Source: Mytilus edulis (lineage: Eukaryota). From it: a stretch of DNA of 64,000 bases. The position numbers were made by a program, and so were the translations under genes. The stretch lies in contig NC_092347.1 in the NCBI RefSeq assembly GCF_963676685.1, positions 70,642,935-70,706,934 on the forward strand, in the 5' to 3' direction. Position 1 is the first letter of the stretch. Each line of letters opens with the position of its first letter. Below are positions 3,201-58,330 of this stretch, in pieces. Under the pieces are notes generated by a model, which saw nothing but the letters and a program-made list of their open reading frames with translations, did no database searches and had not been told where the DNA came from.

Positions 3201-5379
3201 ATATTGCTTCAACCAAATTGCAATGGATGCTGCATTAAGAGCTGTATATGATAAATACTCCGGAGCGCATTTGATCTTTTTTTGTATTCCAAACTGCCAA
3301 AGTTTAAGGTAGCAATTCTGTATTTTTGTATTACCCATTGTTGTTACTGTCCTTGTTTTTTTCATGAACTTTGCCTCTTTAATTTTATTTATTGTGTGAC
3401 GCTAAGATATTTCTTTGACAATGTTTGATGGATCGACCAGATAAACTCTGTGTTATTTGGTATCTTGTAAAGACTTGTCTCATTAGCAATCATACCACAT
3501 CTTCTTTTTTCATATAAATTTCATTTATTTCTTTAACAGAACAAATGACGTATGGCTTATGGTTAGGCGATCATACAAATAGTTTTTTCGGAGATGTAAT
3601 TTTAGTTGTATTGGTTCCAGATCCAGAATGAAAATTAAATAATTCAGAAGATGAAACTTTATTTATTTTAAATTTGATATCATTGGTCGTCACCACGAGT
3701 AGTGTCCTCCTCAATTTGAACTTCAACAGTGTCATTATTACTTATATATGTTATTCTTTTTTTCCCTTCTGTATTTCTTGCCACCTTCTCAGTCAAGGCT
3801 TAAGTGCCGCCAATCTTTAGCTGCATCATCTATCTCCTTATCCGAAGACTATTTACAGCTATGTTTTTTTTCTAACCGACTCTGTAATAAAGTTATAAGT
3901 AAACTTGAATTGCGTATTTGTCTAATGCATGCGTGCGTAATCTCCCTTCTAGATATGTAATATAAATTAATTTATATTCTAAATAGTTTAAACACTATTT
4001 AATACAAAATCAAATCTTAAATAACCAATTTTTTATATATTGGTTATTTGTCTAATTGTCAGAAATTCATTAGTATTAGACGGATTTGTGGGTATAACAA
4101 ACCCTTATTACTTTTATTTCAGAATTCGGTATCATACTTTATATATTCGTAATATACATGATATATAAAGAATAATTTAGATGTGTATTAATGAACAGTT
4201 ATATATTTGATATATAAAAACACTGTTACACATTCAAGTGTGTATATGATCAGGTTTCACAAATATATCGTATCTGTTTGCATGCGATTTAGAAATACAA
4301 TAAAACTAACAAATTCATTTATATTTTAATGAAGTAGAAATCATTATACCACATTTTTGAAACATTACGGAATAAGGTACATCTTAAGACAATTTTATTC
4401 CATTAACTTCAGTAATGATCATACATGTTGTGGTTATAGATTTATATAATTTACCATTTGTTTGAAGATACTAATGTTCAGTGGCAACTATTTCATGATA
4501 ATTAATAGGATTGAAATGATTTAAAATCTAGAAAATATTTCGCCCAAAACGTAGGAACTTTAAGATCAGCATTATAAAATGATAGAAATTAATATATGTT
4601 TTGATATTTAATAACATCCCTCAGATTAAAAAATCATATTGTATTTGTCATTCTGAATCGTATATATATCAGATTTTTTAAAGTTACAACTTACATGTTA
4701 CTATCTTTCTCTTTGAATCTCAGATGATATGATTTTCTCTTTTTGTTTTCTTCGTATCACTGCTTTCTTACAAATACACAACAGGAAATAATCACAAAAG
4801 TGACCATCCCATTACATTCAGATTTCCGATAAACTTGATTACCATAGCAACTATCTTTGAAATTTGTCGAACATATGGTCAACCTTATCAGAATGGGCTT
4901 GATTAACAGACTGGCTGTATCAAATATCACTCTGCATATAATTGCTATTATTATGTTTCACAAAGTTTAATGAATAAAGTTATTATAAATAATGATTGCA
5001 ATAAATTTTAATTTTTAACCAGGCAATCTATGTTTACGGTATTTTTTTTATTACAGTAATGATATTCCAGTATAAATTTTATCTGACTTATATATAGAGT
5101 ATAATATATGATCACGCAACGTTGGGCCAGCATTGGCCCAACATAGAGTTGTAAATGTAATTTCAGTTGATAAACACTGTCGGTATAACATTAACTTTTC
5201 ACTAAGCCTGCTGCAATCGAAATTATCCGCCTCCCAAGAGAAATAAAGCGTAAAATATTATATAATCAATTCTATTAACAAAATTTCATATCGGCCCTAT
5301 GTTGCTACTAACATAATGCCAACATTTGCCCGATTATTTATAACCAACATGAGATAATAATATGAATTTACAACAACAG

Positions 5380-5640
5380 ACCAACGTTTGGCCAATGTTG
5401 TGCAGCCGACACCAACGTGCGACCAATGTACCGACAATTTGCCAACGTTGGGCCAATGTTGTGTAGCCAACATAAACTTGCGACCAACGGACCGACAATT
5501 TGCCAACGTTGGGCCAATGTTGTGCAGCCAACATAAACTTGCGACCAACGGACCGACAATTTGCCAACGTTTGGCCAATGTTGTGAAGCCAACACCAACG
5601 GTCGACCAACGGGCCGACCATTTGCCAACGTTGGCCCACT
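5380..5640. repeat. 60-bp-period satellite array of about 4.5 units built on the palindromic core CCAACGTTGG(G)CCAA
   Basis: Head-to-tail units of 'caatttgccaacgttgggccaatgttgtgcagccaacataaacttgcgaccaacggaccga' at 5385, 5445, 5505 and 5565. A degenerate leader occupies 5290-5380. The overlapping ORFs 5297..5645 on both strands are artefacts of the periodicity. Confidence 0.8.
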
Positions 5641-5721
5641 GTTAGTCTGCTGACTGGGTATTAACTATTATTTTACATAAATCAATTTTCCCATATCAGT
5701 AACTTCTCAGTCTACAGATCT

Positions 5722-6000: not shown

Positions 6001-8070
6001 TGTACAAGTAAGTCTGAACCAGTTACAACTCTATGTGGGATTGTATCTATGGGATCACCAGTGATGGTGATACAAGGCTGAAGTCACATTCTGTATATAA
6101 ATTCGTCTAAATATCAGCCCAACATGTTATAGATCTGAAAATTTGCGGAAGTATTTATATATATACACGGGTTCCACATTTCCTTAGGTATTCGGATCCC
6201 TTCCTCTGCATGGATATAGGAATAAGTAAATTATTTCGTACATTTTCGAAAATGTGCATTTTTTAAATTTCAAATTTAAAAAAACCCGCATCTAAACAAA
6301 TTGAGTTTAGGGGTCAGCTGAATAAAATTATTTCGTACATTTTGTACGTGAACGGATGCGGGATTTTCTTGCTGTGTGAACCTTTTCTTCCCTTTGTTCG
6401 GGTTGTTGTCTCTTTGAAACATTCCCCATTTGCATTCTCAATTGTATCTGGTTTCATTGAGAAAATCGTTACCGTTTAAAAATAGATATCATAAACATAA
6501 AGGCGAAATCAAAAATAAATTAGTCGCAGATGCATGTATAGAAACAACAACATGTTTAACAGGAAATAAACAACCTACCACAAAACACTATACAGGAAAG
6601 TAATGAAAATTAATTGTTAAAAGTCATTATTCATTTAAATTTAACAACATAGGTACATGAAAATTGGACTACCAAAAGCATAGGTACATGCAAATTGGAC
6701 TACCAAAAATTTAGCTCTCTGTCCTACGAGGAGTCTAGGATTGCATAAGAAAAAGCGTTTTACATGGTGACGTATAGTTTTAAATTATAGAAAAAATAAA
6801 TATAACCATTTAGTTAGTGAGCATGCCTTGAATCAGAGTCATATCTAGACATATAAGTTTTTGTTTCAAGGTGTAAATTCGGTTACCATCATAATGGTAT
6901 ACTACTCTTTGTACGTGCTTTCTGTAATCATGATACTAGTTTTATCATTTGTTTTGTTCGGTTTATGAATGTTAAATAGTATAATTGTATTGTATTTGTC
7001 ACTTTATCGGCTTTATGTCATGCTTTGACTAGGAAAAGAGATGACATGCTCAGATTTCAAATATATTTTTGTTATTTGACATTTTTTTCCTGGAAATATA
7101 ATTGTCTGTTCCGGGCTGTACTGCTGTTATACTATGTGAATATAATTCTTTTCGTATTGATCGAATCGGATGCAACAGTTGGACAAGTTTCTACTTTTAA
7201 AATTTGAATTTCACACGCAACTATTAGTTTGCCATATGTTGATGTTCGTCATAATTTTTCATATTAAATGTCGTCATAATTTTATACCATCACACATATA
7301 CATATATCATTTTCTTTTGAAATGCGACATTGACCATATATGGGTTGTTTACTCGTATTATATTCTGCTTCAATTTCGTATTTAATTTGTTTATTACTAG
7401 AATATACTACAGCATTTAAAAACATCGAGGGATGGAAGATAAGAGAAAAAGCACTCTACCCATGTCTGTTTATTAACTTCTGAAATATCATCTGGCGGTG
7501 ATTCGCGTATATTCCATCCGTATTTAATATATACCCAAAATACAAAACATGAAAATACCGACTTAATCCAGTCAAAATACGATAAACACAATAATCAAAA
7601 TATAATAGTGAGTTTTTTCGATAATGTTAATGATCAAGTAGATTTAGCAGTAAAAAAAACTATCTTTAAAAGTAAAAAAATAACACACTGTTTTGAGAAA
7701 TTAGTTCGAACTTCAGAATTATTCTGTGTCAGCCATCTCTCTAAATACCACTTTGGTCTATAACCCCTTTTTTCACCCCGTACAACTCATTATTTGCAAG
7801 TTGATGATAAAGATGTGGTGGTTCTGTTCAATGGGTCACGAGAAAAATGTGACATAAAGATTTGTTTCTGGACTGACAAGTTATTTACAATATAGCCCTA
7901 CCTTTAGAGAGGGTATATTATTTTGTTTCTTGTAAACACTGAGACAAAGCTTTATGTTCGATATGTATATTCGGTATTGGTTCCTTTTATTCTTTTGGGC
8001 GTTCAATTTTCGAACAAAATTTTATGTCAAAATCTGAGACAAAATTGTTCCTATACATGTAGAATGGTAA

Positions 8071-8857: not shown

Positions 8858-10534
8858 ATTGTCTCTTATCAATTTCAGTATTCAGTACCTGTTTTTTTAT
8901 TTCAGATATTTGTTTCTTCCGAGACTGTGTATGGTTATTCCACATAGAGAGATTTTGAAATAATGACATCATTTATATATACGAACTAACACTGACGTCT
9001 CTATGTTTTACTATAAAAGAAACTTTATTGGAACTAAATATTACACTATACTATATTAGTCCAGAGACATAATAATATACATGTATATACATGCATAGTC
9101 TTATGTCCAGTCACCGTCCTATTACTTAAATGCATGGTTTTGCACTTTTAGATAAGCCAGTCAAGTTTGTTAAAAACTTCCATTTGTTGTCTTTTAGATA
9201 TTTTCTTGCATCTGGTGACCGAATGCTCACATAAATGCATATCTAGTCGCCGATAATATTTGACTGACAAAAAAAAACAACGTATAAAAACCTTGTACAC
9301 ATGGTCATGAATTGTTTGAGAGTAGTGTGCCAATAAGCTGGCCAAATTAAACTGAACTTAGCCAATATATTATAATTTGGGGAAAGATGATTAGCCTACA
9401 CCCCTGTCCAATGGCATTAATACCATCTAATGATCTACCATGAGCATCAAATACAGTATACCATCTAAGGCCACCTAACATGTCCCGTCTTGTGACAGTC
9501 GGTGATAAATAAAGGCAGCAGTAATTTAACACAAAGAACCAATCTCTTAAATTCGATCCGTTGCTTAAGATAGATTCGTCATCTAACAGACCAACATTTT
9601 GTAAGCAATTGGCAATATTAAATTGGTTAATATAAGTTTTAATATATTCTTATGGACTTCGACCCCTTCACATGCAGGCAACGCCTGTCTCATATATATA
9701 CATGTATATATATAGATATACTATAAAAATAAATAGAACACAGACTGACATAAAATTGAGAGTGAAAATGGGGAATGTGTCAAAGAGACTGACAACAACC
9801 AGACCAAAGATCAGAAAACAACACAAGACCATCAATGACCAATGGGTCTTCAACATAGCGAGAAAATGAAATGTCAGAAGAAAACATATCATAGTAGTGA
9901 AATCAATCTAAATCTCAGCCCTCCCCCTTAATTTTCCATTTTCCGATTGCAATCCCCGCCTTTGAAAATTGGATGTTAAAGAATGGGCTCACAAACATAC
10001 AACGGGAACCAGAAAAAGTACAAATACAACCAAAAAAGACCCCCCCCCCCCCCCAAAAAAAAAAAAAAAAAAAAGAATAAAAGAAAAAAAACCAATAAAA
10101 ATATTTTTTTGTTAATCAATTCAAGGATTTAGTAATACTAAAGAAATCCTTGAACAATTTCGCATATTTTCGTCGGTAAATTTTAAATTAGGGTCAATTT
10201 TTTAATTGTTTTTTTAATTGCTTTTAGTTTGTATTTGTATTGTTAAATTGTTTTTATGTTATGTTGGTTTGAAAAATCTTTAACGAACCCCTTTTTCTGG
10301 CTCCACCCATTTGATATCTGCCACTCCTTTTCAGGCTTTTGTGAGCAGACGGCATCCTTGTATTTCGTTGAAAATGCTTTCATTATTTAAACATATTATT
10401 TTGTAAATTACTATAACCCAAATAATCTCAGATTGAAACTTCCTTACCAATATTTTCTAGTGCTGTGAGAAAAAATTCAGCAAAAACTCTACGGACAAAA
10501 GTACTGTCAACTTTGAACTTTCACCTGCATACGG

Positions 10535-13139: not shown

Positions 13140-13990
13140 ATAGTTATAAAATTGAAAATGGAATTTGGGAATATGTCAAAGAGACAACAAAAGAGGGACG
13201 AAAGATACCAGAGGGACAGTCAAACTCATAAATTGAAAATAAACTGACAACGCCATGGCTAAAAATGAAAAAGACAAACAGACAAACAATAGTACACATG
13301 ACACAACATAGAAATCTAAAGAATAAGCAACACGAACCCCACCAAAAACTAGAGGTGATCTCAGGTGCTCCGGAAGGGTAAGCAGATCCTACTCTACATG
13401 TGGCACTCGTCGTGTTGCTTATGTGATAACAAATTCAGTAAATAGTCTATGTGTACAATTTGGAAATTAGTATGGTGTTCATTATCACTGGACTAGTATA
13501 TATATTTGTTTAGGGGCCAGCTGAAGGACGCCTCCGGGTGGGTATTTCTCGCTACATTGAAGACCTGTTGGTGATCCTCTGCTGTTGTTTTTTATTTGGG
13601 CGGGTTGTTGTCTCTTTGACACATTCCCCATTTCCATTCTCAATTTTAATTTGGTACACTGTAGGTCACATTCATGAAAGGGAAGGGGATTGTAGTTACG
13701 ACATTAGGAACATATCCTATATCATTTGTGAAATGGTTATTCCATAACGATCAACCAACTCGTGATGGTGTCCGTAAAATTTACAAAGGGATGATTTCAA
13801 CTTTACCATTTGGAACTCTTGGTTTAATAGCTTCCTTACATGTATGAGCAGCAACCCTCTATCAAGAAAATCATGATAGGAAATGCAAGCATGGGAATAT
13901 CGTATCAATTGGGAGATATATACCCCGTATGCAGGTGCTGCTGGAATGTTGCTACTTAGAAATGGAAAGTTCACAATTGGAAAGCTGAAA
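13140..13990 (+). mobile_element. Composite of nested interspersed repeats: a pearl-like foldback element with about 45-bp TIRs, inserted in or fused to a longer repeat family that carries a conserved small ORF
   Basis: 13148-13190 'aaaattgaaaatggaatttgggaatatgtcaaagagacaacaa' is the reverse complement of 13605-13650 '...ttgttgtctctttgacacattccccatttccattctcaatttta'. Solo copies of the same terminus lie at 6300-6440 (+) and 9735-9870 (-). The stretches 13260-13440 and 13640-13990 match 52540-52870, 53720-54200 and, as reverse complement, 57900-58330. Confidence 0.5.
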
Positions 13991-15642
13991 TCATCTCTTT
14001 TGTCGTAAAGTTTTGTTTTGAACCAACCCTCATTGTCAAATTCTAGATGAAAGCTAAGTCAAGATATGAGGCCGACTTTACTGTATCTGTAGTATCCTTT
14101 ATCTCTAGTTCAATGGGATAGATCGATGTGTTCAACATTCATGTAGTCACCAAATTTTAAAGTATTTAGTGAAAGAAACATCTATATAGCGGAAAGTAGA
14201 CCCGACCAAAAAGCAGACAACAGCCGAAAGCTGTAATGTATGCATTTGGATATTCACAAAGGGTTTAAGGTACATGCACATGAGATGTGGATGATACACA
14301 TTGTAGTATAATTGTAGGTGAAGACTAGACATTTTTTAGGTCAAGTTGAAGTATTTAAATATTTTTACATGTGCAACAGTAACATGGCATGCTTAAAGGT
14401 ACAAACATGAAAAAAATATACGTTTTAAATTCAATCTGAATGTTCACTGTTACTTGAAAAACAGTTTTCATTATACACTCTTTATAGTCTTGTAGCCAAG
14501 ATTTACTGTCTACATTTAGATATTTATTTTACAAACCACTTACATCAAGGCTGATGGTCGGACCTGTGGCTAAGTGAAGACTAATGTCAATAAAATTAAA
14601 TATTATTTGATGGTTTGAAATGCTCTTTGAAATTTCACCGTACTAGAACTCTAAGATTTGTGCCACATAAGTTTAAGTTTCATGTGGTATTTTTTTTGTA
14701 CATGGTAACCTATGTCTTATCATTGTTTTTGAACCTATTGAACCAGAAACAGACTAGTACAAGCTATGCATTGTACCATACACATGTCAGTTGCATACCA
14801 CAAGACATCATGATGAGATGTCACTACTTTGCACAATGCAGTATCTATTAGTACAATGGAAAATTGTACCTATCATTAAAAAAATGTGACCAACTCAATG
14901 TTACATGTATAAATAAGGAAATGCATGTGGTTTGATTGCCAATGTCTATCTGACAAGAGTCCAAATGAAATGAATATAAAAAGTTATAGGTCAACATAGC
15001 CTTGTAACAAAAATTAGTAAACCCATACTTTTATACATACATAGCTATAGTCGAATGTATAAAAAGGCCCCAACATGACAAAAAAGTCTGGTAGAAAAAT
15101 AAAACATTTTCTTAATTGTAACAAGCTTTAGAGCTGACTACCGGTACATGTATGTGGTAAAGGGTATGCACAGGGTATGTACTTGTATTCTATACAAAAT
15201 CTTCTTTGGTAACTAAAATTGCATGTCACTGCTTTAGATAAAATCCTGTTGTCATGTTCATAAACATGCATGTTTTTTTTTGCACACAAGTTTTTGAAAG
15301 TGACCATTCTTGTTAAACTCAGTTTATTTACTCATTGTATTATTGTACATGTATACTTACATAGTGTATATCGATTAAGTCTCCTTTTTATTAAACTAGC
15401 TGTTACTTATTGTACATTTTTGTAAAAACCTCTCATCTGGTTGAATGATTATTATGACTATTTTCACACACTTTCTAAAAATGGCACATTAAAAACTGAA
15501 CTTATAAAGTTTAAAACCTAAATATAAATCCTGTACGTGTACATGTATATTAAAGCCAAGAAACTGGGACCCACTACAAGTAGAAATGATTTTGAAGAAA
15601 TTAAGAATATAATAAATATTTTTTTTAAATGATATTTTTCAG

Positions 15643-16557
15643 ATGCCGAAGGCCATAAAGCAGAAATGGGGGCCAATTGGATACATGGCATAGAAAGAAA
15701 CCCAATTTTTAAAATTGCTGATGACAATAATTTGCTAGAATTGAGACATGGCAATAAAGGTCTTCGTAATAAAACATCCTTTATAATGGAAAATGGAGAG
15801 GAAGTAACTGAAAAAATAGTCAATCAAGTAAATTTGAACTATGGGCAACTAATTATGCAAGCAGAGGATTTTTATCAAAATGGTATGCCCACAATGGAAG
15901 AAAATGATAGTGTTGGGGCATTTCTGGAACGTGAATATGAAGACACTTTGGAACGATATACAAATGGTGACCGTCATATTAGAGAATTGTTGTTTGATCA
16001 GCGAAAAAGGCTAGAGTGTTGTATATCTGGCTGTGATTCATTGTCAGAGGTTTCTTTGAGTGAGTTTGGAAGTTACGAAGAACTACCAGGTGTTCATTAT
16101 ACAATCCCACCCGGTTTTACTGCAGTTTTAGAAATCCTAAAAAGTAGTATCCCAAAGGAAAATATTTTACTCAATCATCCAGTCAAATGTATACGATGGA
16201 ATAGACAATTTCCTGATCCAGAAAAAAATGTTTATGAATGTTGTGTTGAATGTGAAAACGGTGAAAAATTCTATGCAAATCACGTAATATGTACTGTTTC
16301 ACTAGGTGTTTTAAAAGCTGCATGTGATAGGATGTTTAACCCACCATTGCCTAAAATGAAATTAGATGCAATAGATGCAGTTGGATTTGGCATTGTAGAC
16401 AAAGTTATTATTCAGTTTGATGAACCAGTGACAGAGCCAGAATTGTTCCGTGTAGAACTTGTGTGGGACAATGATCTCATTGAAATGAATGATCTGCGAC
16501 ACACGTGGTATCGTAAAATATACTCCTTTGAAGTGGTACATGACAATGTTTTAGTTG
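15643..16557 (+). CDS. Polyamine/spermine oxidase-like, coding exon 2 (about 305 codons)
   Basis: Acceptor tttttcag| immediately upstream. Splicing from exon 1 in phase 1 gives ...VNLG|DAEGHKAEMGANWIHG..., and GANWIHG is the conserved substrate-binding motif of SMOX/PAOX. The long open frame in AT-rich DNA (ORF 15666..16574) includes VICTVSLGVLK, which matches the SMOX/PAOX 'VTVSLGVLK' motif. The exon ends at donor G|GTGAGT at 16558 in phase 1. The start coordinate is uncertain by about 1 bp. Confidence 0.85.
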
Positions 16558-17524
16558 GTGAGTATAATTGTTAAAGTGGCATTGGTGCTATCTGGACTGT
16601 CTTTTTTTGCTTAGATTGTATCAACGATTGAGTAATGAAATTTTTGAAGTTTACAGGGTTCTCACTATACATGTATAGTACATAGAGTCCAAGTGCCATG
16701 GACAAATCTTTTTCAAAACTGGTTAAAAAATATCAATATGTAAGTATCACTGTTGTTGCTTCATCAGTTCATAATATATACATGATATTATATATATATA
16801 TGTATAAAATACACTTTTGGAATTATTAGATGTATCAATGAGGGCTGTACATGTTATCCCGATTGGCTGTATCTAATATAATTTACACCAAGATATTAAG
16901 GTTGATACAAAAGTTTGATTTTTGATACTTTAGGAGAAGGATCTTGCAGCAAATTTATGATGAAAGCAAGATAAATGCAGGATATCCAATACATGTAATA
17001 TAACAACACCTCGGTTAAAAATTACATTTTTGTACTTGCATACTTTATTGTAGTACTACATTTTGTACATGTAATGAAGTCTTAATGAACATGAACATAC
17101 AATGTATATAGACAATGTAAAATTAGGAGGCCAACATCAGTTTGTTTTGACCAGTTATATTAACTTTTCGTGTTCATCCACATGCATACATGTATCTGAG
17201 AAAGAGAAATGTATTGAACGCTTTTTCTTTGTGGAGAGCTTTGTGTAAATATTTCTTTTTCAGATAATATTTATTAAGTTCTATTATTATCATGATTATT
17301 ATTTATTTGTTACCATGGTACATTTGTTACAGAACAAAATCAATAGTTACCAGGTGCTACAAATGTATTTGTACATGTACATAGTATATATGAATACATT
17401 TACATGTAGGTATACACAAAAAAAACTTGTGATTCTACCCACCTAGCTTGAACATGTTGAAGAATTCTGGGCCCTCAAGTGACCTATACATAGCTATTTT
17501 AAAGAGATACAAATGTAAGTTGGT

Positions 17525-32649: not shown

Positions 32650-33375
32650 TGTGATTTAGGCCACTTCACCTATGTCTGTCAGTCCCATTAACATATAGGC
32701 CACTTCACCTATGTATGTCAGTCCCATTGACATATAGGCCACTTCACCTATGTCTGTCAGTCCCATTGACATATAGGCCACTTCACCTATGTCTATCAGT
32801 CCCATTGCCATATAGGCCACTTCACCTATGTTTATCAGTCCCATTGACATAGGCCACTTCACCTATGTCTATCTGTCCCATTGACCTATAGGCCACTTCA
32901 CCTATGTCTGTCAGTCCCATTGACCTATAGGCCACTTCACCTATGTCTGTCAGTCCCATTGACCTATAGGCCACTTCACCTATGTCTATCAGTTCCATTG
33001 ACCTATAGGCCACTTCACCTATGTCTGTCAGTCCCATTGACCTATAGGCCACTTCACCTATGTCTATCAGTCCCATTGACCTATAGGCCACTTCACCTAT
33101 GTCTGTCAGTCCCATTGACCTATAGGCCACTTCACATATGTCTATCAATCCCATTGACATATAGGCCACTTCACCTATGTCTGTCAGTCCCATTGACCTA
33201 TAGGCCACTTCACAAGTCTGTCAGTCCCATTGACATATAGGCCACTTCACCTATGTCTATCAGTCCCATTGACATATAGGCCACTTCACCTATGTCTGTC
33301 AGTCCTATTGACATATAGGCCACTTCACCTATGTCTATCAGTCCCATTGACCTATAGGCCACTTCACCTATGTCT
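32650..33375. repeat. 39-bp-period minisatellite of about 18.5 units
   Basis: The unit gccacttcacctatgtctgtcagtcccattgac(a/c)tatag is repeated head-to-tail with sporadic substitutions (ctgtc/ctatc, gacat/gacct). Because the period is a multiple of 3, ORFs 32656..33240 are open on both strands and are artefacts. Confidence 0.85.
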
Positions 33376-36300
33376 ATCATTTGTCACTTGTTAAAGTGTC
33401 AATTTCAATAGCACACACTAATTATATTTTTTTTTAAATGCTGTATAGACTATTTGCTACCTCTAGTTGTCGAGGCTTCGACTTTAGTCGAAAAAGCGAG
33501 ACTAAGCGAGACTACATTCAGTCGTCGGTGTCGTTGGCGGCGTCCACAAATATTCACTCTGTGGTTAAAGTTTTTAAAATTTTAATAACTTTCTTAAACT
33601 ATCCTGGGTTTGTACCAAACTTGGACAGAAGCTTAATTATGATCATAAAATAGTATCCAGAAGTAAATTTTGTAAAAAAAATAATTCATTTTTTCAGTAT
33701 TTTACTTTTAAATGGACTTATATTTTCTTCCAGTTAACCATACATACATGTACAGTCTGCAGTTGTTTTTAAAACATTTATTAGATTCATAAACTATCCT
33801 GGATTTTAACCAAACTTGGACAGAACATTACAATCAAAAGATTGTATCAAGGGGAATATTTGATTGAGTTTCTTCCTCATTTTTGTTGAGCCTTTGATTT
33901 ACAGCAAAAGTAGGCGAGACACTGGGTTCCGCGGAACCCTTACAATTTTTTTTTGATATTTTGACTTAAAGATGTTCAGGGTTTGATCAATTAGGTATGA
34001 CATTGTTCTTTATTTCTACACCTATGGTCTAAAAGTGTTTTGCTTAGGTATGATAAACAAGAAGACAGATGTGTAGAATGTTACAGTCTGACACCTGTAC
34101 CCTGTTAGGTTCTATGATATATGTAGTACATTTCTTTAAACTGACATATTACGGTCAGGACTTCTGTTTCTGAGGTGTGAGTTAATGAGTTTTGGGTCAA
34201 TTTGTATCTATATATGGTGTAAAAATTTATATATAACAATTTACTAAAGGAGGCTTACAACATGTACAACATATGTCTCAATTGATCAACAGTAAAACCT
34301 GTTACAAGAGCCTGCAAATCTTGTGCCAAGGCCACAATTAAAAATATTTTGGTTTGCACCCTACCCAAGGTTGAGACAATGGGTAGGTAGGTAGGCATTT
34401 TCTTTTTTTTTCTTTTTTTTAAAGAAATTGAAGTATCAGATGTTTATTAGTCTTCATGCCTATCTGATTAAAAAAAAACATCTTCAAATCAGGACAATAA
34501 AGAATTTGAGTAGGCAGCTTTTTTCTGGGTAGGTAGGGTTTGGGCAAACAAACCTATTCTTTTTTATGGCCCAATCAGTTCAAATTGTTTGAGGGCCAAT
34601 AGGCAACACAAACAAAAGTTTTGATGATTTTCACTTAGTCAATGCATAATTCATTATTCCTTCATTCCTCTATATAACTTTCATCCATCTCCTTTAAATA
34701 TTGAATTTGGTGGAAAATTTTGACAAACTAAAGTGTTATATTCATAGCTGATGGTTTAATGGTGTAAAATTGATGCTAATAATATGTTTTGGTCAGAACA
34801 GGCTTCTGAAAACCAATCCTTGATATAGTGCATTAGTGGGTAGAAAAGTTATCTTCAGGAAATTCTGACTTAATCATGTGCTTGAAAACCTGTTGTAAAA
34901 AGAAGTAAAAATTAAGACCCTGACTTCCTTTTCAATTACACTTTTGTTTTGGTCAGACACTGGATTCTTTTGTATATACATGTAGCTAGCATATTCCCCT
35001 TCTTGACCTTGAAGATAAACAAATATGTTTCAGGCTGTACATAGTTTTATTTGCCAATGTCAACAAATATCCACTTACATTTTATGAAAAGAAATCTATG
35101 TATTTTGAAATTGATTTCTCTTTTGAAACTAAACAATAACAATGATTAGACATATACTATTCACACAGTGTGAAATATATATATTTATTAAAACACTTGA
35201 CCTCGATCTAATAATAAAGATTATGCGAAACCAATACCAGTGCCAATCAATAATATCAAAATTGTATCTGACACAACATGTGATGTTAAAAGTTAGAATA
35301 TACATATTTGAAAGTAAAATTTCATTTCTATTACTTCATAATATATTGGATAATGAAGTTATGACCTAGTTTTTTTGACTTGTTGATGATGTGTTGTGAA
35401 ATATGAAGATTTAAATGTTTGTCATGACGTCAACAGTCCCAGTTACCAGACAAACAATTCTGCGTACATGTAATGGGGTGGGCTAAGTACATTTCTAAGT
35501 ATTAAATCAAGTTTATGTTTATTTGTCCTTGCTCAAACTTCCTCATGCTTGTTCTTTTATTTAAAACTTTAAAATCTTAATTAAATTATGACATATAAAT
35601 TACGTTCAAAAGGAAATATTCATCTGTTAGCAGGATGCTATGTGATCATCGATTTTTACTCCTACACTGGATTAGTAACAGTGAAAACGTTCATTACTAT
35701 AACAAAGATTGCACCACATTTTTGTGGCATCTGTTAAGGTGTGGGGTTAATGTTTGTGTCTCTTACGAATTTAAATATTCCTTTGTCCTAGTATTTTTAA
35801 ATCAGAGCGTTTCATAAATTTATGATTCAATTTTATCATTGTTGCTTGGTTCAAATCAGTCCTTGGAAACACACTTGAGTTCTGTAATTATTAGTAACCA
35901 GAATCAGGCATGACTTAATTGAAATGCAACAGGAAAACAAGGAAATTGTGGATTACTTGGAAAAAGACATAAAAATATACCTGTATAGGAAATCAGATAA
36001 TTTTGGTTCATTGATTTTTGTTTTTCTTTATTTTAAAATATGTAGTATGTTTAAGTTAGAGGAAGACATGCTTTTGATGGTCATGTTTTGAACAGGAAGA
36101 GACCGACTGAATAAACAGGATAAACCTGTATAAACAATTCTCCCTTCCCTTTGTCAGCATAGTAAAGCTCAAGAGTACATGAATTGTTTATTAGTTTCAA
36201 GTTAATGTGTTGTAGCTTTTCCTAGAATTTGAATTTTCCACAAAAATGGTGGTATTGATTATGGATAAAACTTATGAATCTAATTATATAATATATTGAC

Positions 36301-51419: not shown

Positions 51420-54210
51420 GATGATATTTTTTTTGTGAAATAAGATTGAAAAAGAAAGAAAAGTGCATGAGGCAACAATATGGTGTCTCAAAAATTTCAA
51501 AGGAATAGTTCTTTTATTACTAATTTTGTGTACCTATCAACGAAGTAGTGAGATACAACAAGACAGAAGATACCAAAGAGACAATCAAAATTTATAATTT
51601 CAAAGAGGAAACTAAAAAACCGCAGTTTATAAAACATTAAGAGAGACTAAGGTGTGCTATTGTCAGTGTCTGCAGTGTCAACCATTGCTAAGTTAGTGAT
51701 TAGGTCAGTTTCAGATGAACCACAAATACCATGATATTATGTTTGCAGTTGTGTTAGCATTGACACATGTCTCATTGCCATTAAGCTAATTGTCCCCTGC
51801 CTTGTCATGATTCATTGACATAGATAGTTATCAAAGGTACCAGGATTATGATTTAGTACGCCAGACGCGCGTTTCGTCTACATAAGACTCATCAGTGACG
51901 CTCATATCGAAATAGTTATAATGCCAAATAAGTACAAAATTGAAGAGCAATGAAGATCCAAAATTCCAAAAAAATTTGCCATAAAAACTTTCGCATAGTT
52001 TACATTGTTGAAGGTGGTAATTAGGTCAGTATAAGAAAAACTGCAAGGATTTATAGGTATGCAGTACTAGCCTTTATTCATACCAATTATATGTCCCAAC
52101 CCTTAAGTTGTAGTCAATTGAGGAGGGGTAAAAGATACGAGAGGAACAGTCAAACTCCTAGATCGAAAATAAACTGAACGCCATCGCTAAAAAATAAAAA
52201 TACAAACAGACAAATAATAGTACAAAAGACACAACATGAAATTGCACGTTTTGTCTGGTATCCAAGTTGAAGAGGTGCACTTTGATTTTAATTTTTGCAT
52301 ATCCTATCAAATTATACAGGTAATGTGAATCTCAATTTATGCATGGATTTAGTGCAAATCAAAAATGTCACATCTGACCCCCGGAAAAAGGCAACGTCTG
52401 GGATAGGTTAAATACTCCTCATACAAAAATTAATATGTATTGATATTGATTATGGCTGTTGGTCTTGCGATCTCTTTATGATTTGAAATGATCAGTAAAA
52501 GAGATGGTATCAAAATCATAAAGTTAAAACTGATATCGACGATGCTAAAAAAAGGAAAAAGCCAAACAGACAAACAACATAACACAAAATAGAAAACTAC
52601 ATACTGATCATCACGACCCTCTTAAAAAAAACCTGGAGGTGTTCTTATGTGTTCCGGAAGAGTAAGCACATCCTGCTCCACATGTTGCACCAATCGTGTT
52701 GCACATGGTAGTATACACCCGGTTATTAGTATAATTAGGTTGGTCACATTCGGGGTAAAGTGGACGAGTAATAAGTTGATCGAACGTTTCCTCTGACCTC
52801 TGTAAAAAAAATACTCCATAACTGCCAACCATCTCATGATGGCGTCTGTAAAATCAACGAAGACATCACTTATAACTCTTAGGTCTATGGATTTTGATGA
52901 TATTTTTTTTGCCAAGTAAGATTGAAAAAGAAAAAAAGATGCATAAAGCAACAATATGATATCTCAAAAATTTCAAAGTAATAGCTCTTTTATTTAATAC
53001 TATTTTTGTGTACCTATCAACAAAGTAGTCGGATACAACAAGGCAGAAGATACCAGAGAGACAAATTGAATCAAAATTTATAATTTTGAAGACGAAACTA
53101 AAAAACTGCAGTCTATAAAACATTAAGAGAATCTTAGACGTTCTGTTGTCAGTGTCAGCAGTGTCAACCATTGTTAAGATAGTGACAAGGTCAGTTTTAG
53201 GTGAACCACTAAGTCATCAATATTTTGTATGCAGTTGTATTAGCATTGACACATGTCTCATTGCCACTACGATAATTGCCCCCTGCCTTGGCATGATCAA
53301 TTGACACTTACATGTTCAAGGTTGTTATTAGGTCAGTGGTAGCAAAATTGCAAATGGCCAGTCAATTATTTATTTGTAAGCAGTTGTATTAGCTTTGATT
53401 CGTACCAATTCCGTGTCCCAACCTCCAGTTGTAGTCAATTGAATGTTTGCCTAGTTACCATGTTAAAGTGCTGCCCTTTGATTTTAACATTTTCACTATA
53501 ATATCAAATTACAAACAGGGGATGTGAATCTGGGTATCATCACTTTATACATGAATTTAGTGAAGAACAAAAATATCACATCTGACACCAAGAAAAAGGC
53601 AACTTGAATTGACATGGATTACGGCTGGTGGTCTTGTCATATCTTTTGATTTAAAATGATCAGTAAACGAACGGCGAAAGATACCAATACTAGTATGACA
53701 TTCAAACTCTAATTTAGAAAGCTGATCACGCCAAAGCTAAACAAGGAAAAGCCAAATAACAGTTCATAAAACACAAGATAGAAAACTAAAGACTGAGCAA
53801 TACGAACCTTACAACAACTGGGGTGATTTCAGGTGCTCTGGAAGTACAAAAACAATAATAAGTATATTTGGGTTTGTTACATTCGGGGAAAAGGGTACAG
53901 GATTGTATTCACATTAATCGGAACGTTTTGTCTTGCATCTTCCACAACGGTCAACAGACTCATTGGCTTCCGTAGAATTAACGAAGTGATGGTTTTATTA
54001 ACATCACTTGGAACTCTTGGTCTTATAGATTTTTTTGTCAACAGCAACTATCAAGGAAATCATAATAGGGTTAACGAGCCTTGGAATATCGTATCAACTG
54101 GGAGATATAATTATAATATGTATGCAGGCGCTGCTGGAATATTGCTATATAGAAATGGAAAGTTCATAATTTGGAAGCTGAAATCATCTCTTTTTTCGTA
54201 GTTTTTTTTA
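51420..54210. repeat. Tandem segmental duplication, two units of about 1.45 kb at about 85% identity, with nested interspersed-repeat copies
   Basis: 51420-51830 aligns with 52880-53305, 52000-52420 with 53320-53640, and 52430-52870 with 53610-54200. Unit junctions are at tgattttgatgatatttttttt at 51420 and 52880. Confidence 0.6.
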
Positions 54211-57200
54211 ATATATATTAGACCGTTGGTTTTCCTGATTTGATTGTTTTACACTCATCATTTTCGGGCCCTTTATAGCCTGCTGTTCTGTGTGAGCCAA
54301 GACTCAATCTTAAAGGCCGCATCTTCTTATCTATATTTGTTTTCAAACAACATTCATTGTCAGTTTCTAGATGTCAGCAGTCAATAATATGATGCAGAAC
54401 TGTATCTGTTGTATTCTTTATCTGAAAGATAGATGCGTTCATCATAGTCACCAAATTTTGAACTATGTACGGAGAGAACATTATCTACATAGCAAAAGTA
54501 AAGTTAAAAGATACTGCTTACATCTACTCTTCCCGTATGAAGTCAGCCTCAGATGAATACAAGAACAAGTCGCCAATAAGAGGAACACAGCTGGTTCCCA
54601 TGGAAATACCAATTGTTTTGTTGAAAAACATGTCCTCCAGACTTTGGATATTTTAATATCCTCATCTTAATCGCACAAATAGGTAGTTTGGAATTTGATG
54701 TTTATAATTTAGAAAGAGATTTTGTGAAGCACTTTGAAGACTTAGCAACGTTGTTTGTACGAACACTTATGTACACAGGTATGCAATACAGTGATGGAAG
54801 ATTGGTTGAAATTTTCATAGGTCTTATGATTATCAAGAATTTCCTCCTTTGTAAGGGACGATGGAGTATAAGCTCAGTTTCTAAGCGAATTGTCAAAACC
54901 CAATGAATTTATCAGAATGTGTTTTACACACAAACACAATGTTGTTTTGTGCTTTATCTGCGGGAACAATGTTCAACATTAATTCTGAGTTGTATTAACG
55001 ACCCCATGCCATTTGGAAAGAGAATATACGTCTTTTTTTCCGCGTTTAAAAGTTTGCCTGCCATAATTCCTGATTGGAAACATCATCACTTTGAAGTTGT
55101 GGTTCCAATTGATGAGTTTAGTCGCATAGAAGTGTTATCTATTGTGTTTTCTCTCAATCAATTTATGACATTCGAACAGCTGTATACTACTGTTGCCTTA
55201 TTTAGGTCACCAGAAAAATAACGTGACATGCCGGATTATATATGAATAGAGAACTGGCACAGGCGCAATCAGGAGGTTCAGACTTGAAGTCGTCAATATT
55301 GAGATCCTTCAACACGTCCACACACCGGAAAAGAACACTTCGAACGTAGACAGTTCAACACTCTAACAACAATCATTTAGACAAGAAAGTAGAGTTTAAT
55401 ACCACAATGAAATTATGCAGAAAACTATAAAAGTATCATTGAAATTTTATTCAGTTGCAGATCCATGATTCTTTTGTAAAATTAAATTAAACAACATCAA
55501 TTTTTACTATATGCGCATTCTCTTCAGTAAAACTTGTGGCCAAACTTTCGATAATCCAAAACCGTATATAAAAGCAAAAAGTCTTCACAAAACAACGCAA
55601 CGATTTCAGATACTAGTACTATTTGTAATAATACCTGATACCTTAACTTGTTTTGCGGCTTTTTTTTGCTTCACAGTTTTTGGTGGGGTTCGTGTTGCTT
55701 AGTCTTTAGTTTTCTATGTTGTGTCTTCTGTACTTTTATTTGTCTTTTTTTAGCCATGACGTTGTCAGTTTATTTTTCAATCTATGAATTTGACTGTCCC
55801 TCTGGTATCTTTGGCCCCTCTTTTTGAGATGTATATGTTGTTCGTCCTCCCAAATTACGTTGCGGATTGTAAAAAGTATCGGATATAAAATCCCGTCAAA
55901 TCAGACATGCTCAGAACAATGGAGTTTACATTTTTAGATTAGTCCATTTGTTGAAAATTTACATTTATGTTTAGCAATTCTTTATTGATATATTTACAGC
56001 TTGTTTATTTTTTTTTTTTATGTTTTTTTGTACAAAATTGATAAAATTATTAAGAAACTCCCTGAGAACAATTTGACCTTAGATGGATTTGACAATAATT
56101 TTTTCGTCCTTTTTTTGTGTCACTGAGCTCTTCAACTGTGACGGCTTTCAAAGCATTCGACTTTAAGCGTTACGATGAAGGTGATAATAAAAGCGTTTCG
56201 AAAACACATTACCTTTATATAGTTTTATTTTCAATTCTTTTTATAGCACTGTGTGGATTCCGCACCTGGTATACTATCAATTCCCAAGTATATCATCAGT
56301 TCAGAAGTTAGTAAATCGGTACTGACAAACTCATCATAGATACCGGAAATAACATTGTGAACAACTGACGTTATGTTTAACATTCCTTTACTAAATCCGT
56401 CTATGAATTGTTTTAATTATGAAGAAAGTAAGTTTCCTATTCCCTCTGAAAATGTTGACATAAGATTGATTTGTCTATTATTTAAAGGTCAATTTTTATT
56501 CATAAATCTCTCAAGTATTGCATACTGGGCTGATGATACTAACGGGCAGAGAACCTGGACCAGCATTGACATCGACCCAGAGGTTGGAAAATAAAACTCA
56601 TCAGAAATACCAGGCTTATAATAATAATCCAGTCAAGGATGTATTAGCACCGAAAGATTGGTGTGTTAACATGAATTATAATAAACTCCCTTTTAAAAAA
56701 AAACTACATTTGAACTGTTCGAAATACTCCTGTTTTCTTTTACCACATGAGTAGATTACCATAGCTGTATTTGGCAAAACCTTTCCGAATTACGGGTCCT
56801 CCTTAATGGTCTTCAACGTAATTAGTTCTTTATTTGACCTTTCATTTTTTTATTCGAGCGTCACTGTTAAGTTTTTTGTAGACGAATCGTGCGTCTAGCG
56901 TAAACTATTCACTGTCCCTCTGGTATCTTTCGTCCCTCTTTTATAAGCCGGGTATCTTTGATGAGTTGTTTCTGCAATCAATTGGTCAATGTCAATACTG
57001 TTTGAGTTTCCACCAAGAGTGTATCACCAGCCAAGTAGTCGGCACATATTAGTCAACATGAATTAATCTCGCTATGGCATAGAATATCTTAATATATATC
57101 CCCACGACACGTCTAGTCTATGTTTCTTTGGAATTTCAACCAAAGATGAAAATCAGATCTTCATTCACATTTTGGATGCCTTAACTACATAAGTGTTCCT

Positions 57201-57385
57201 ACAAACAAGGGTATATTGCTGGGTCTTCGAAGTGCTCCACGAGACCTCTTTAAATTATTTACATCAATTCAATCAGCAGTCAAAAACGGGCTTCAAGGTT
57301 AAGACTCTTACATCTTGCAATAGTCTTAAAACATGACTTTTTTACACTTTACACAAGTATTCCCCATTCCAAACTAAAAGACAAA

Positions 57386-57697
57386 TTGAAAGAGTTGCTA
57401 TTGCTTTGTTTCATAAAACAGAATGGCCAACGTAGATACAAGTATCTTGTCTTAGGGAGGAATAAATCCTACTTCGTAGATAATCACTGTGATTCAAGCA
57501 AAACATTCTCTTTAACTGACATAATCAAGATGCTTGATTTCTTGATTGACAACATAATCATAACGTTGGGAGTTTTTCAACAAACTATCGGCATTCCGAT
57601 GAGAGAGACCAGTGCCCCTCTTCTTGTCGGCTTGTTCCTTTATTCTTATGAGGTTGATTTCATAAACGGACTTCTTAAGAAGAAATATAAGAAGTAA
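57386..57697 (+). pseudogene. Fragment of a repetitive-gene or retroelement ORF with an RT-like 'GIPMG...APLL..LFLYSYE' motif
   Basis: ORF 57386..57697 contains ...ITLGVFQQTIGIPMRETSAPLLVGLFLYSYEVDFI.... The pattern G-x-P-x-G-x3-(S/A)-P-L-L-x2-L-F-L resembles reverse-transcriptase motif 4/5 (QG..SP.L). The ORF is truncated on both sides and is surrounded by other broken ORFs at 54688-56311. Confidence 0.3.
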
Positions 57698-57899
57698 GCA
57701 GTATCCTTTGTCTTTTCTTTCCTCTATATAGATGTTCTTTCACTAAATAATTCAATGTGTTGACTATGTTTAACGCATCTAGAGATAAAGGATACAACAG
57801 AAGATACAGTTAAGACTGCCTCATATCTTGACTTTAGAATTTGACAATGGGGGTCAGTTGAAAAAAAAACTTTACGACAAAAGAGATAATTTCAGCTTC

Positions 57900-58330
57900 T
57901 CATTATGAACTTTCCATTTCTATGTAGCAACATTGCAGCGCCTGCATACCGATTACATATCTCCCAATTGATACGATATTCCCTGGCTTGTATACCTTAT
58001 CATGATTTCTTTGATAGAGGGTTGCTGCTCACAAAGAATCTGTTAAACCAAGAGTTCCAAATGGTGAAGTTGAAATCACCCCTTTGTAAATTATACGGAT
58101 GCCACCACGAGTTGGTTGACCGTTATGAAATATCCGTTTCGGTATCGGATATGTTTCTTTTGCCGTAACTATAATCCACATCTCTGATGTGACCTACCGA
58201 ATTAGACAGGTGCCACATATGGAGCAAGATCTGCCTATCTTTCCGGAGCACCTGAGATCACCTCCAGTTTTTGTTGGGGTCTATAAAATTTGATGCAACT
58301 GTCGTACAAGTGAGAGGTTTAGCGCTATAA
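57900..58330 (-). mobile_element. Copy of the ORF-bearing interspersed repeat family (reverse orientation relative to 13250-13990)
   Basis: About 85% nt identity to 13340-13440 plus 13640-13990, without the 200-bp pearl-like insert. ORF 57905..58168 encodes MNFPFLCSNIAAPAY...NQEFQMVKLKSPLCKLYGCHHELVDRYEISVS, a homologue of ORF 13717..13974. Confidence 0.5.

Follow-up and report, generated by a model that had tools for sequence, protein, structure and literature searches.

Open reading frames on an interspersed repeat of Mytilus edulis as probable relics of the reverse transcriptase thumb of a Naiad-type Penelope-like element

Naiads and related retroelements

Naiads are Penelope-like retrotransposons (PLEs) described by Craig, Yushenova, Rodriguez and Arkhipova (2021, Mol Biol Evol 38:5005; PMC8557442). 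Their units of 3.4-4.4 kb carry an ORF of ~1,000 aa with an N-terminal GIY-YIG endonuclease, a CCHH motif and an upstream Cys motif, together with a KR-rich block, the motifs CxC and GxKF/Y, a DKG motif changed to DKA, and a reverse transcriptase (RT) with thumb, which has an insertion-in-fingers domain (IFD) and a spacing between RT3(A) and RT4(B) that exceeds that of canonical PLEs by ~20 aa. Genomic copies are heavily 5'-truncated, with 3' ends the most abundant, and are found in partial tandem (pseudo-LTR) or inverted arrangements; they have no canonical hammerhead ribozyme and show an insertion bias toward (TA)n microsatellites, which is a tendency rather than a strict criterion. Naiads attain copy numbers in the tens of thousands in bivalves, where they are dominant (Mytilus galloprovincialis is named), and contaminating Naiad copies in metagenome assemblies are also mentioned (PMC8557442).

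We analysed a 64,000-nucleotide stretch of the Mytilus edulis genome (here called the window; NC_092347.1, positions 70,642,935 to 70,706,934), in which two open frames of about 85 codons, ORF A and ORF B, lie on copies (A and B) of one interspersed repeat (Table 1). This repeat is very probably a Naiad-type PLE whose copies in the window are truncated and decayed, the two ORFs being relics of its thumb-coding region; the assignment to Naiads is based on diagnostic motifs and architecture as published, and not on a phylogeny with a reference set. As in the Naiad Penelope-2_CGi (extended) of Crassostrea gigas, intact relatives of the repeat have a single ~1,000-aa ORF and a GIY-YIG domain at the N-terminus, preceded by a Cys motif and with two core Cys. 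They also share with Naiads a basic stretch between endonuclease and RT, the CxC, GxKF/Y and DKA motifs, the thumb, and the lack of a C-terminal endonuclease, along with a ~3.4-kb unit that forms head-to-tail junctions, 5' truncation on a massive scale with 3' ends commonest, no hammerhead, and a very high copy number in marine-invertebrate-derived sequence. Nothing of substance differs from Naiads, except that there is no (TA)n target at copy A, where neither flank (the flanks of this copy being those inspected) has such a microsatellite. Where the two align, copy A shares ~94% (91-95%) identity with the subfamily of the intact reference used below (L003).

The canonical EN+ PLEs (Penelope/Poseidon, Neptune, Nematis, Hydra) likewise have a telomerase-related RT with thumb, a GIY-YIG domain with a CCHH-type motif, and 5'-truncated, tandem or inverted insertions. 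They differ in that their endonuclease lies C-terminal to the thumb, in that they have DKG, and in that hammerhead ribozymes are usually present in their pseudo-LTRs.

The intact element and its C-terminal region

Pfam gave no match for the 85-aa ORF or for a 288-aa conceptual translation of copy B, and nothing useful for eight short database fragments; RT and endonuclease signals surfaced only with longer intact relatives. The 113-aa peptide of copy A, read from stop to stop, has 3,529 database protein matches (best 89% identity, E=3e-59). Proteins of 113-196 aa occur within the top 120 matches to the ORF A region and are gene-caller fragments of a large ORF; eight that were inspected have starts scattered within RT sequence. 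Longer database fragments extend upstream into ...GIPMGTNCAPLLADLFLYSYEADF...FRYIDDVLSLNN..., which are RT motifs B and C. The conceptual translation upstream of ORF B is the same RT sequence, broken by stops and frameshifts, and relatives found with it show weak RVT_1 matches. Two relatives are named reverse-transcriptase-domain proteins, from the bivalve Tegillarca granosa, and no organism names other than those of bivalves are attached to relatives. A profile search returned 37,920 cluster representatives at E<=1e-3; intact homologues of 930-1,050 aa are numerous and lie mostly on contigs about one unit long, and some clusters comprise thousands of sequences. Pfam PF26215.1 appears in the precomputed annotation of two relatives (P0088 and P0476) and gave no such match with our local copy of Pfam; a newer release may contain a model for this C-terminal domain.

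A metagenome scan led to 80 fetched loci, L003 among them. L001 and L002 were considered as references and rejected as merely decayed or other-subfamily copies from which the full architecture is absent. The first 77 bp of the 3,447-bp L003 contig are exactly its last 77 bp (1-77, 3371-3447), giving a 3,370-bp unit placed head to tail. This overlap is either a head-to-tail tandem or an assembler's circularisation of a high-copy repeat, and the 3'-to-5' junction is read through in L008 too. L003 has one intact 995-aa ORF, whose C-terminus (...VNFPFLSSNIPAAPAYGVYISQLIRYSRACISYHDFLDRGLLLTRKLLNQEFQMVKLKSSLRKFYGRHHELVDRYGITVSQMISDMFLTS, then the stop) is collinear with ORF A. The relatives have ORFs of 927-1,055 aa, and many more are 994-1,049 aa long.

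The architecture was examined in an alignment of the L003 ORF with seven full-length relatives that are 30-43% identical, and the motif residues numbered below, like the RT palm motifs, are invariant in all eight proteins. Counted along L003, the upstream Cys motif is C94/C97 within CRISKCETKGCKTC, the GIY-YIG core residues are Y132, C136, C139, Y143, G145, T147 and R154, and H173, E210 and N226 follow the core; residues ~130-167, N-terminal to the RT, read VVYGLECNLCGLVYVGET...R...H. The Pfam GIY-YIG model matches N-terminal residues ~77-220 above its gathering score in four of the seven aligned relatives (P0285, P0352, P0384, P0375) and also in P0399, and is sub-threshold in L003 (14.8 bits), P0255 and P0390. 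Between GIY-YIG and CxC, L003 has a short basic stretch, TPRRRRSHGHRHY. Then come the CxC motif (C426/C428, DCTC in L003), the GxKY motif (KGPKYRE in L003, with G461 and E466 invariant), DKA (D553-K554-A555, PADKAPNN in L003), PKxHK (K626/H628/K629), and the RT palm motifs DFSTLYT, GIPMG and RYIDD. The RVT_1 model matches the C-terminal half with E-values between 1e-3 and 1e-6, under its gathering score (22.3 bits for L003). The distance from D707 (DFSTLYT) to G794 (GIPMG) is ~87 residues, which the model described below fills with a helix, strands and a helix; an IFD may be present here.

The region of ORF A has the conserved pattern DKR(D)DF..I.NFP...N.....GV...Q..R......F..R...L..KL, and in or beside it DKR 896-898, F903, P909, N914, V923, F941 and L952 are invariant. 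The L003 stop lies 7 residues past the last thumb helix, and the stops of the seven distant relatives fall within about 10-80 aligned residues of the thumb; there is thus no C-terminal endonuclease. Pfam searches of the full-length proteins found no APE or RLE endonuclease, integrase, protease or RNase H. Rfam found no hammerhead ribozyme in the window at the gathering threshold, nor at E<=0.1 in L003, L004, L005, L006 and L008.

In an AlphaFold model of the relative P0127, covering palm through C-terminus (mean pLDDT 76.9), the region of ORF A folds into 4-5 bundled helices that follow the palm, with pLDDT ~80-86; this bundle is the RT thumb. Searching PDB chains by sequence with the 995-aa ORF gave no match of value, whereas a Foldseek search with this model did: telomerase RTs came out best (6zdq, 7qxb and 7lma, E=1e-5 to 2e-4, to the modelled palm and thumb), and group II intron, R2 and retron RTs ranked next. 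Shared with TERT, too, is a long insertion that separates RT motifs A and B of the element where TERT has its IFD. The likeness is one of fold, at 12-13% identity and TM-scores of ~0.4, and the element differs from TERT in being mobile and in having an endonuclease domain, without TEN/TRBD domains or a telomere function.

Fragments of the repeat in the window

The sequence-only reading had placed ORF A and ORF B on oppositely oriented copies of one repeat and judged their peptides homologous, and we find both to be the case: the frames agree at 212 of 243 nucleotides (87%) and at 62 of 82 residues of the protein (76%), and copies A and B overall are 77.7% identical across 539 bp. Its initial methionine is present in ORF B and wrong for ORF A, which begins with GTG (Val) and is without ATG. 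From stop to stop, ORF A has 28 more upstream codons (...LSFHLEFDNEGWFKTKLYDKRDDFSFPI-VNFPFL; 113 aa in all), and the ATG of ORF B is a point mutation (GTG to ATG) of the conserved Val codon seen in ORF A.

In the ancestral ~995-aa Naiad ORF, the counterpart of ORF A is about codons 906-988, in the RT thumb region; ORF A is 93.8% identical to L003 2942-3211. One 6-nt insertion, in frame, lies within it, and a premature TAG (from Ser TCG) closes it 7 codons short of the ancestral stop (13696..13698). ORF B extends to the ancestral stop only via a frameshifted C-terminus. We rejected the idea that the in-frame stop of ORF A is read as selenocysteine, since it is a TAG derived from TCG, with no TGA at a Cys codon. 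Neither ORF has a native start codon or an independent function.

Table 1. Copies and fragments of the repeat, and the two open frames, in the window (reference positions are those of L003)
Feature	Position	Strand	Remarks
ORF A	13717..13974	(-)	probable thumb-coding remnant on repeat copy A
ORF B	57905..58168	(+)	within copy B, repeat orientation opposite to copy A
Copy A, coding remnant and proximal 3'UTR	13661..14200	(-)	blastn vs L003 2729-3249, 90.6%
Nested 211-bp insertion, unrelated short interspersed repeat	13450..13660		inside copy A 3'UTR; absent from L003 and copy B
Copy A, distal 3'UTR to 3' terminus	13186..13449	(-)	L003 3255-3370 then 1-148, 93-94%
Copy B	57111..58280	(+)	5'-truncated at reference ~2007-2029; RT motifs through thumb, 3'UTR
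Copy B, extra 3'UTR-tail piece	58495-58595		matches copy A 13228-13332
Copy C, older, heavily decayed	53664..55345	(-)	reference ~1423 to 3' terminus
Copy D, extreme 5'-truncated	52510..52862	(-)	last ~30 codons and 3'UTR; L003 3122-3443 and 16-114, 72%
3'-terminal tail-only fragment	52123..52241	(-)	L003 20-141, 82%
3'-terminal tail-only fragment	55675..55824	(+)	L003 3354-3428 and 1-145, 79-89%
Element scrap, 5' leader	56514-56584	(-)	L003 149-218
Element scrap, 3' tail	56908-56944	(+)	L003 111-147

With the intact 995-aa ORF as query, tblastn matched 14175..13702 in copy A (E=7e-61) and 57170..58156 in copy B (E=5e-101; 60% aa identity across residues 622-992). It found no further element coding sequence for copy A past 14200, and no coding for this protein in the window outside the Naiad copies. 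The 5' truncation of copy A falls at reference position 2729, within the RT and immediately before RYIDD; aligned globally with L003 the copy is 94.8% identical, with 4 frameshifts and 1 stop, and the four frameshifting indels all lie within 250 bp upstream of ORF A. In copy B the reading frame is shifted by 11 indels and broken by 3 in-frame stops; copy C has accumulated 45 frameshifting indels and 7 stops, together with an insertion of ~130 bp at 54206-54335.

The 6.5 kb between 52100 and 58600 are a nest of Naiad fragments, six or more in number and of either orientation, within which copies C (-) and B (+) stand head to head, 1.8 kb apart, an arrangement that recalls the inverted and tandem insertion complexes of PLEs; B and C are only 71-78% identical and are therefore probably independent insertions.

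The homology of five window fragments stops at L003 141-148, and most ends among the 80 loci that were fetched crowd into ~132-148. A common 3' end combined with varied 5' starts is the signature of 3'-primed, often aborted reverse transcription. The T-rich 3'-terminal tail of ~186 bp (L003 3331-3370 plus 1-146; window 13186-13370) is alignable in 58 loci at 70-78% over ~174 bp, and stays alignable even beside coding sequence with no more than ~66% identity, suggesting that the 3' end acts in cis and is conserved. Three other fragments in the window bear this tail (52123-52241, 55675-55824 and 56908-56944), and at copy A it gives rise to spurious short ORFs at 13176..13304 (-) and 13144..13299 (-).

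The 211-bp interspersed repeat nested in copy A may belong to the SINEs or the MITEs. Pieces of 45-115 bp from its ends are met again at 9751-9865 (-), 6393-6446 (+) and 13147-13190, the last being an inverted 44-bp copy (vs 13605-13648) directly after the 3' end of copy A. We considered whether this inverted pair (13147-13190 / 13605-13648) might mark a MITE carrying the Naiad and rejected the idea, since L003 positions 3249 and 3255 are contiguous at the point where copy A carries the 211-bp insertion, and since the 44-bp module recurs in the window without Naiad sequence. The module is a separate short repeat, of which one copy was inserted into copy A and another lies beside it.

About 1.5 kb from copy A lies a 302-aa ORF at 15666..16574 (+), MGANWIHGIERNPIFKIADDNNLL...GFTAVLEIL..., which, as judged by eye, resembles a large exon from a host gene of flavin amine-oxidase-like or polyamine-oxidase-like type. 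Two tandem arrays in the window are unrelated to the ORFs: 32657..33379 (39-bp unit x18.6, 93% matches) and 5381..5643 (61-bp unit x4.3).

Coding frame, rival readings and meaning

The sequence-only reading could not tell a genuine element-encoded protein from a coincidental open frame. We compared frames in 27 ungapped copies, all from other contigs, over 87 codons of the ORF region. The frame of the peptide has a dN/dS of 0.27 with 0.30 stops per copy; four of the five other frames have 1.07-1.66, and the fifth, the antisense frame that has its wobble positions in common with it, is also low at 0.40. All five alternative frames carry 2-7 stops per copy. The element is thus truly coding in the peptide frame, which is under purifying selection at the level of the family. 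Frame-disrupting indels, which the same reading took as a sign against coding if they proved common among copies, are indeed common in the local copies but not in the family. What is encoded is therefore genuine, but it is not a protein of ~85 aa: the frame is the C-terminal ~9% of a ~995-aa ORF, and the local copies are nonfunctional (5'-truncated, frameshifted and interrupted by stops).

Pairs of intact copies have dN/dS values of 0.13, 0.18 and 0.18, with one pair at 0.34. The window copies give 0.36 (A vs B), 0.43 (B vs L003) and 0.56 (A vs L003, from only 9 changes), above most of the intact pairs, and we read these values as selected divergence of active lineages plus neutral change after insertion. 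The ORFs in copies A and B are still open because the copies have diverged only ~5% (A) and ~13% (B) from the intact relative, and their openness reflects recent coding ancestry and not local selection.

The thumb-region antisense frame has the fewest stops among the non-coding frames, ~2 per copy. The third copy had been said to be open on the other strand instead, and copy C does have such an ORF at 53833..54201 (+), of 122 aa and antisense to the homologous coding frame; it and its 41-aa counterpart in copy A (13883..14008, +) are there because that antisense frame is poor in stops.

A frame of this length could be open by chance on a non-coding repeat, the similarity of the peptides merely mirroring the ~85% DNA identity of the copies. 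Stop-to-stop stretches of at least 85 codons number 42 in the window, against 16.8 +/- 4.8 in Markov-1 simulations, so that ~17 would be expected from its composition, and the antisense strand of copy C holds its 122-aa ORF as well; in an AT-rich window 85 open codons are by themselves unremarkable, and the case is made by homology and by the substitution pattern. Coincidence nevertheless has next to no probability when the frame and the C-terminal ends of intact ~995-aa ORFs are collinear, when invariant residues of the frame persist down to 30% overall identity, and when a dN/dS of 0.27 with hardly any stops stands against 2-7 stops and values >1 in four of five frames. That the repeat is a retroelement of another class (a canonical Penelope with C-terminal endonuclease, Neptune, Hydra, or a LINE or LTR element) is very unlikely. 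The RT fold is generic, the RVT_1 matches are weak, and group II intron and R2 RTs are among the structural matches, but the best of these are telomerase RTs, the GIY-YIG domain is N-terminal, and the ORF ends shortly after the thumb, leaving no place for a C-terminal endonuclease; CxC and DKA, diagnostic of Naiads (PMC8557442), are invariant, and the Pfam searches speak against the APE, RLE, integrase, protease and RNase H domains of other classes.

It is extremely improbable that the thumb-only peptide is a small protein in its own right, whether the repeat expresses it or the host has domesticated it. About 85 codons are open in two copies, an ATG has been gained at the first codon of ORF B, and A vs B has a dN/dS of 0.36. 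Against this, ORF A lacks an ATG and is just the open tail of a frame that is shifted four times in the 250 bp upstream, the ATG of ORF B replaces a conserved Val codon, one ORF ends prematurely and the other reaches the ancestral stop only through a frameshifted C-terminus; the low dN/dS is explained by divergence of active master lineages before insertion (intact copies have 0.13-0.34), and the database matches to this region are fragments of the large ORF. There is likewise only the slenderest chance that the thumb-only remnant or the ~186-bp 3' tail has a function of its own, for instance as a truncated thumb peptide or a tail RNA that, as a non-autonomous partner, interferes or hitch-hikes with active Naiads, or as a regulatory sequence near the amine-oxidase-like gene; the sole observations that bear on it are that the frames are open and that the tail is conserved across subfamilies.

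Under the Naiad interpretation, an active element would be a ~3.4-kb unit with a single ~995-aa ORF encoding, in order, an N-terminal GIY-YIG nicking endonuclease, a linker with CxC, GxKY and DKA, and a telomerase-like RT whose helical thumb makes up the last ~90 residues. From established PLE and retrotransposon biology, the endonuclease would nick the target DNA and the RT would copy the element RNA from its conserved 3' end; synthesis may frequently stop early, leaving mostly 5'-truncated insertions that consist of the 3'UTR and the C-terminal part of the coding region. Copies A, B and C of the window, with several of its tail-only scraps, are insertions of this kind and have later undergone neutral decay through frameshifts, stops and nested insertions.

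The ORFs are an ordinary, previously described component of bivalve genomes, and as such already known; they tell us nothing new about retroelement biology, and their main value lies in annotation. The peptide (...KRDDFxFPIVNFPF...YGVYISQLIRY...KFYGRHH...) is among the commonest "hypothetical proteins" on bivalve-derived and marine-metagenome contigs, with thousands of fragmentary database entries, some of them on contigs filed as metagenomic. Recognised as the thumb of a Naiad PLE, such ORFs can be masked as transposon relics and need not be counted as genes.
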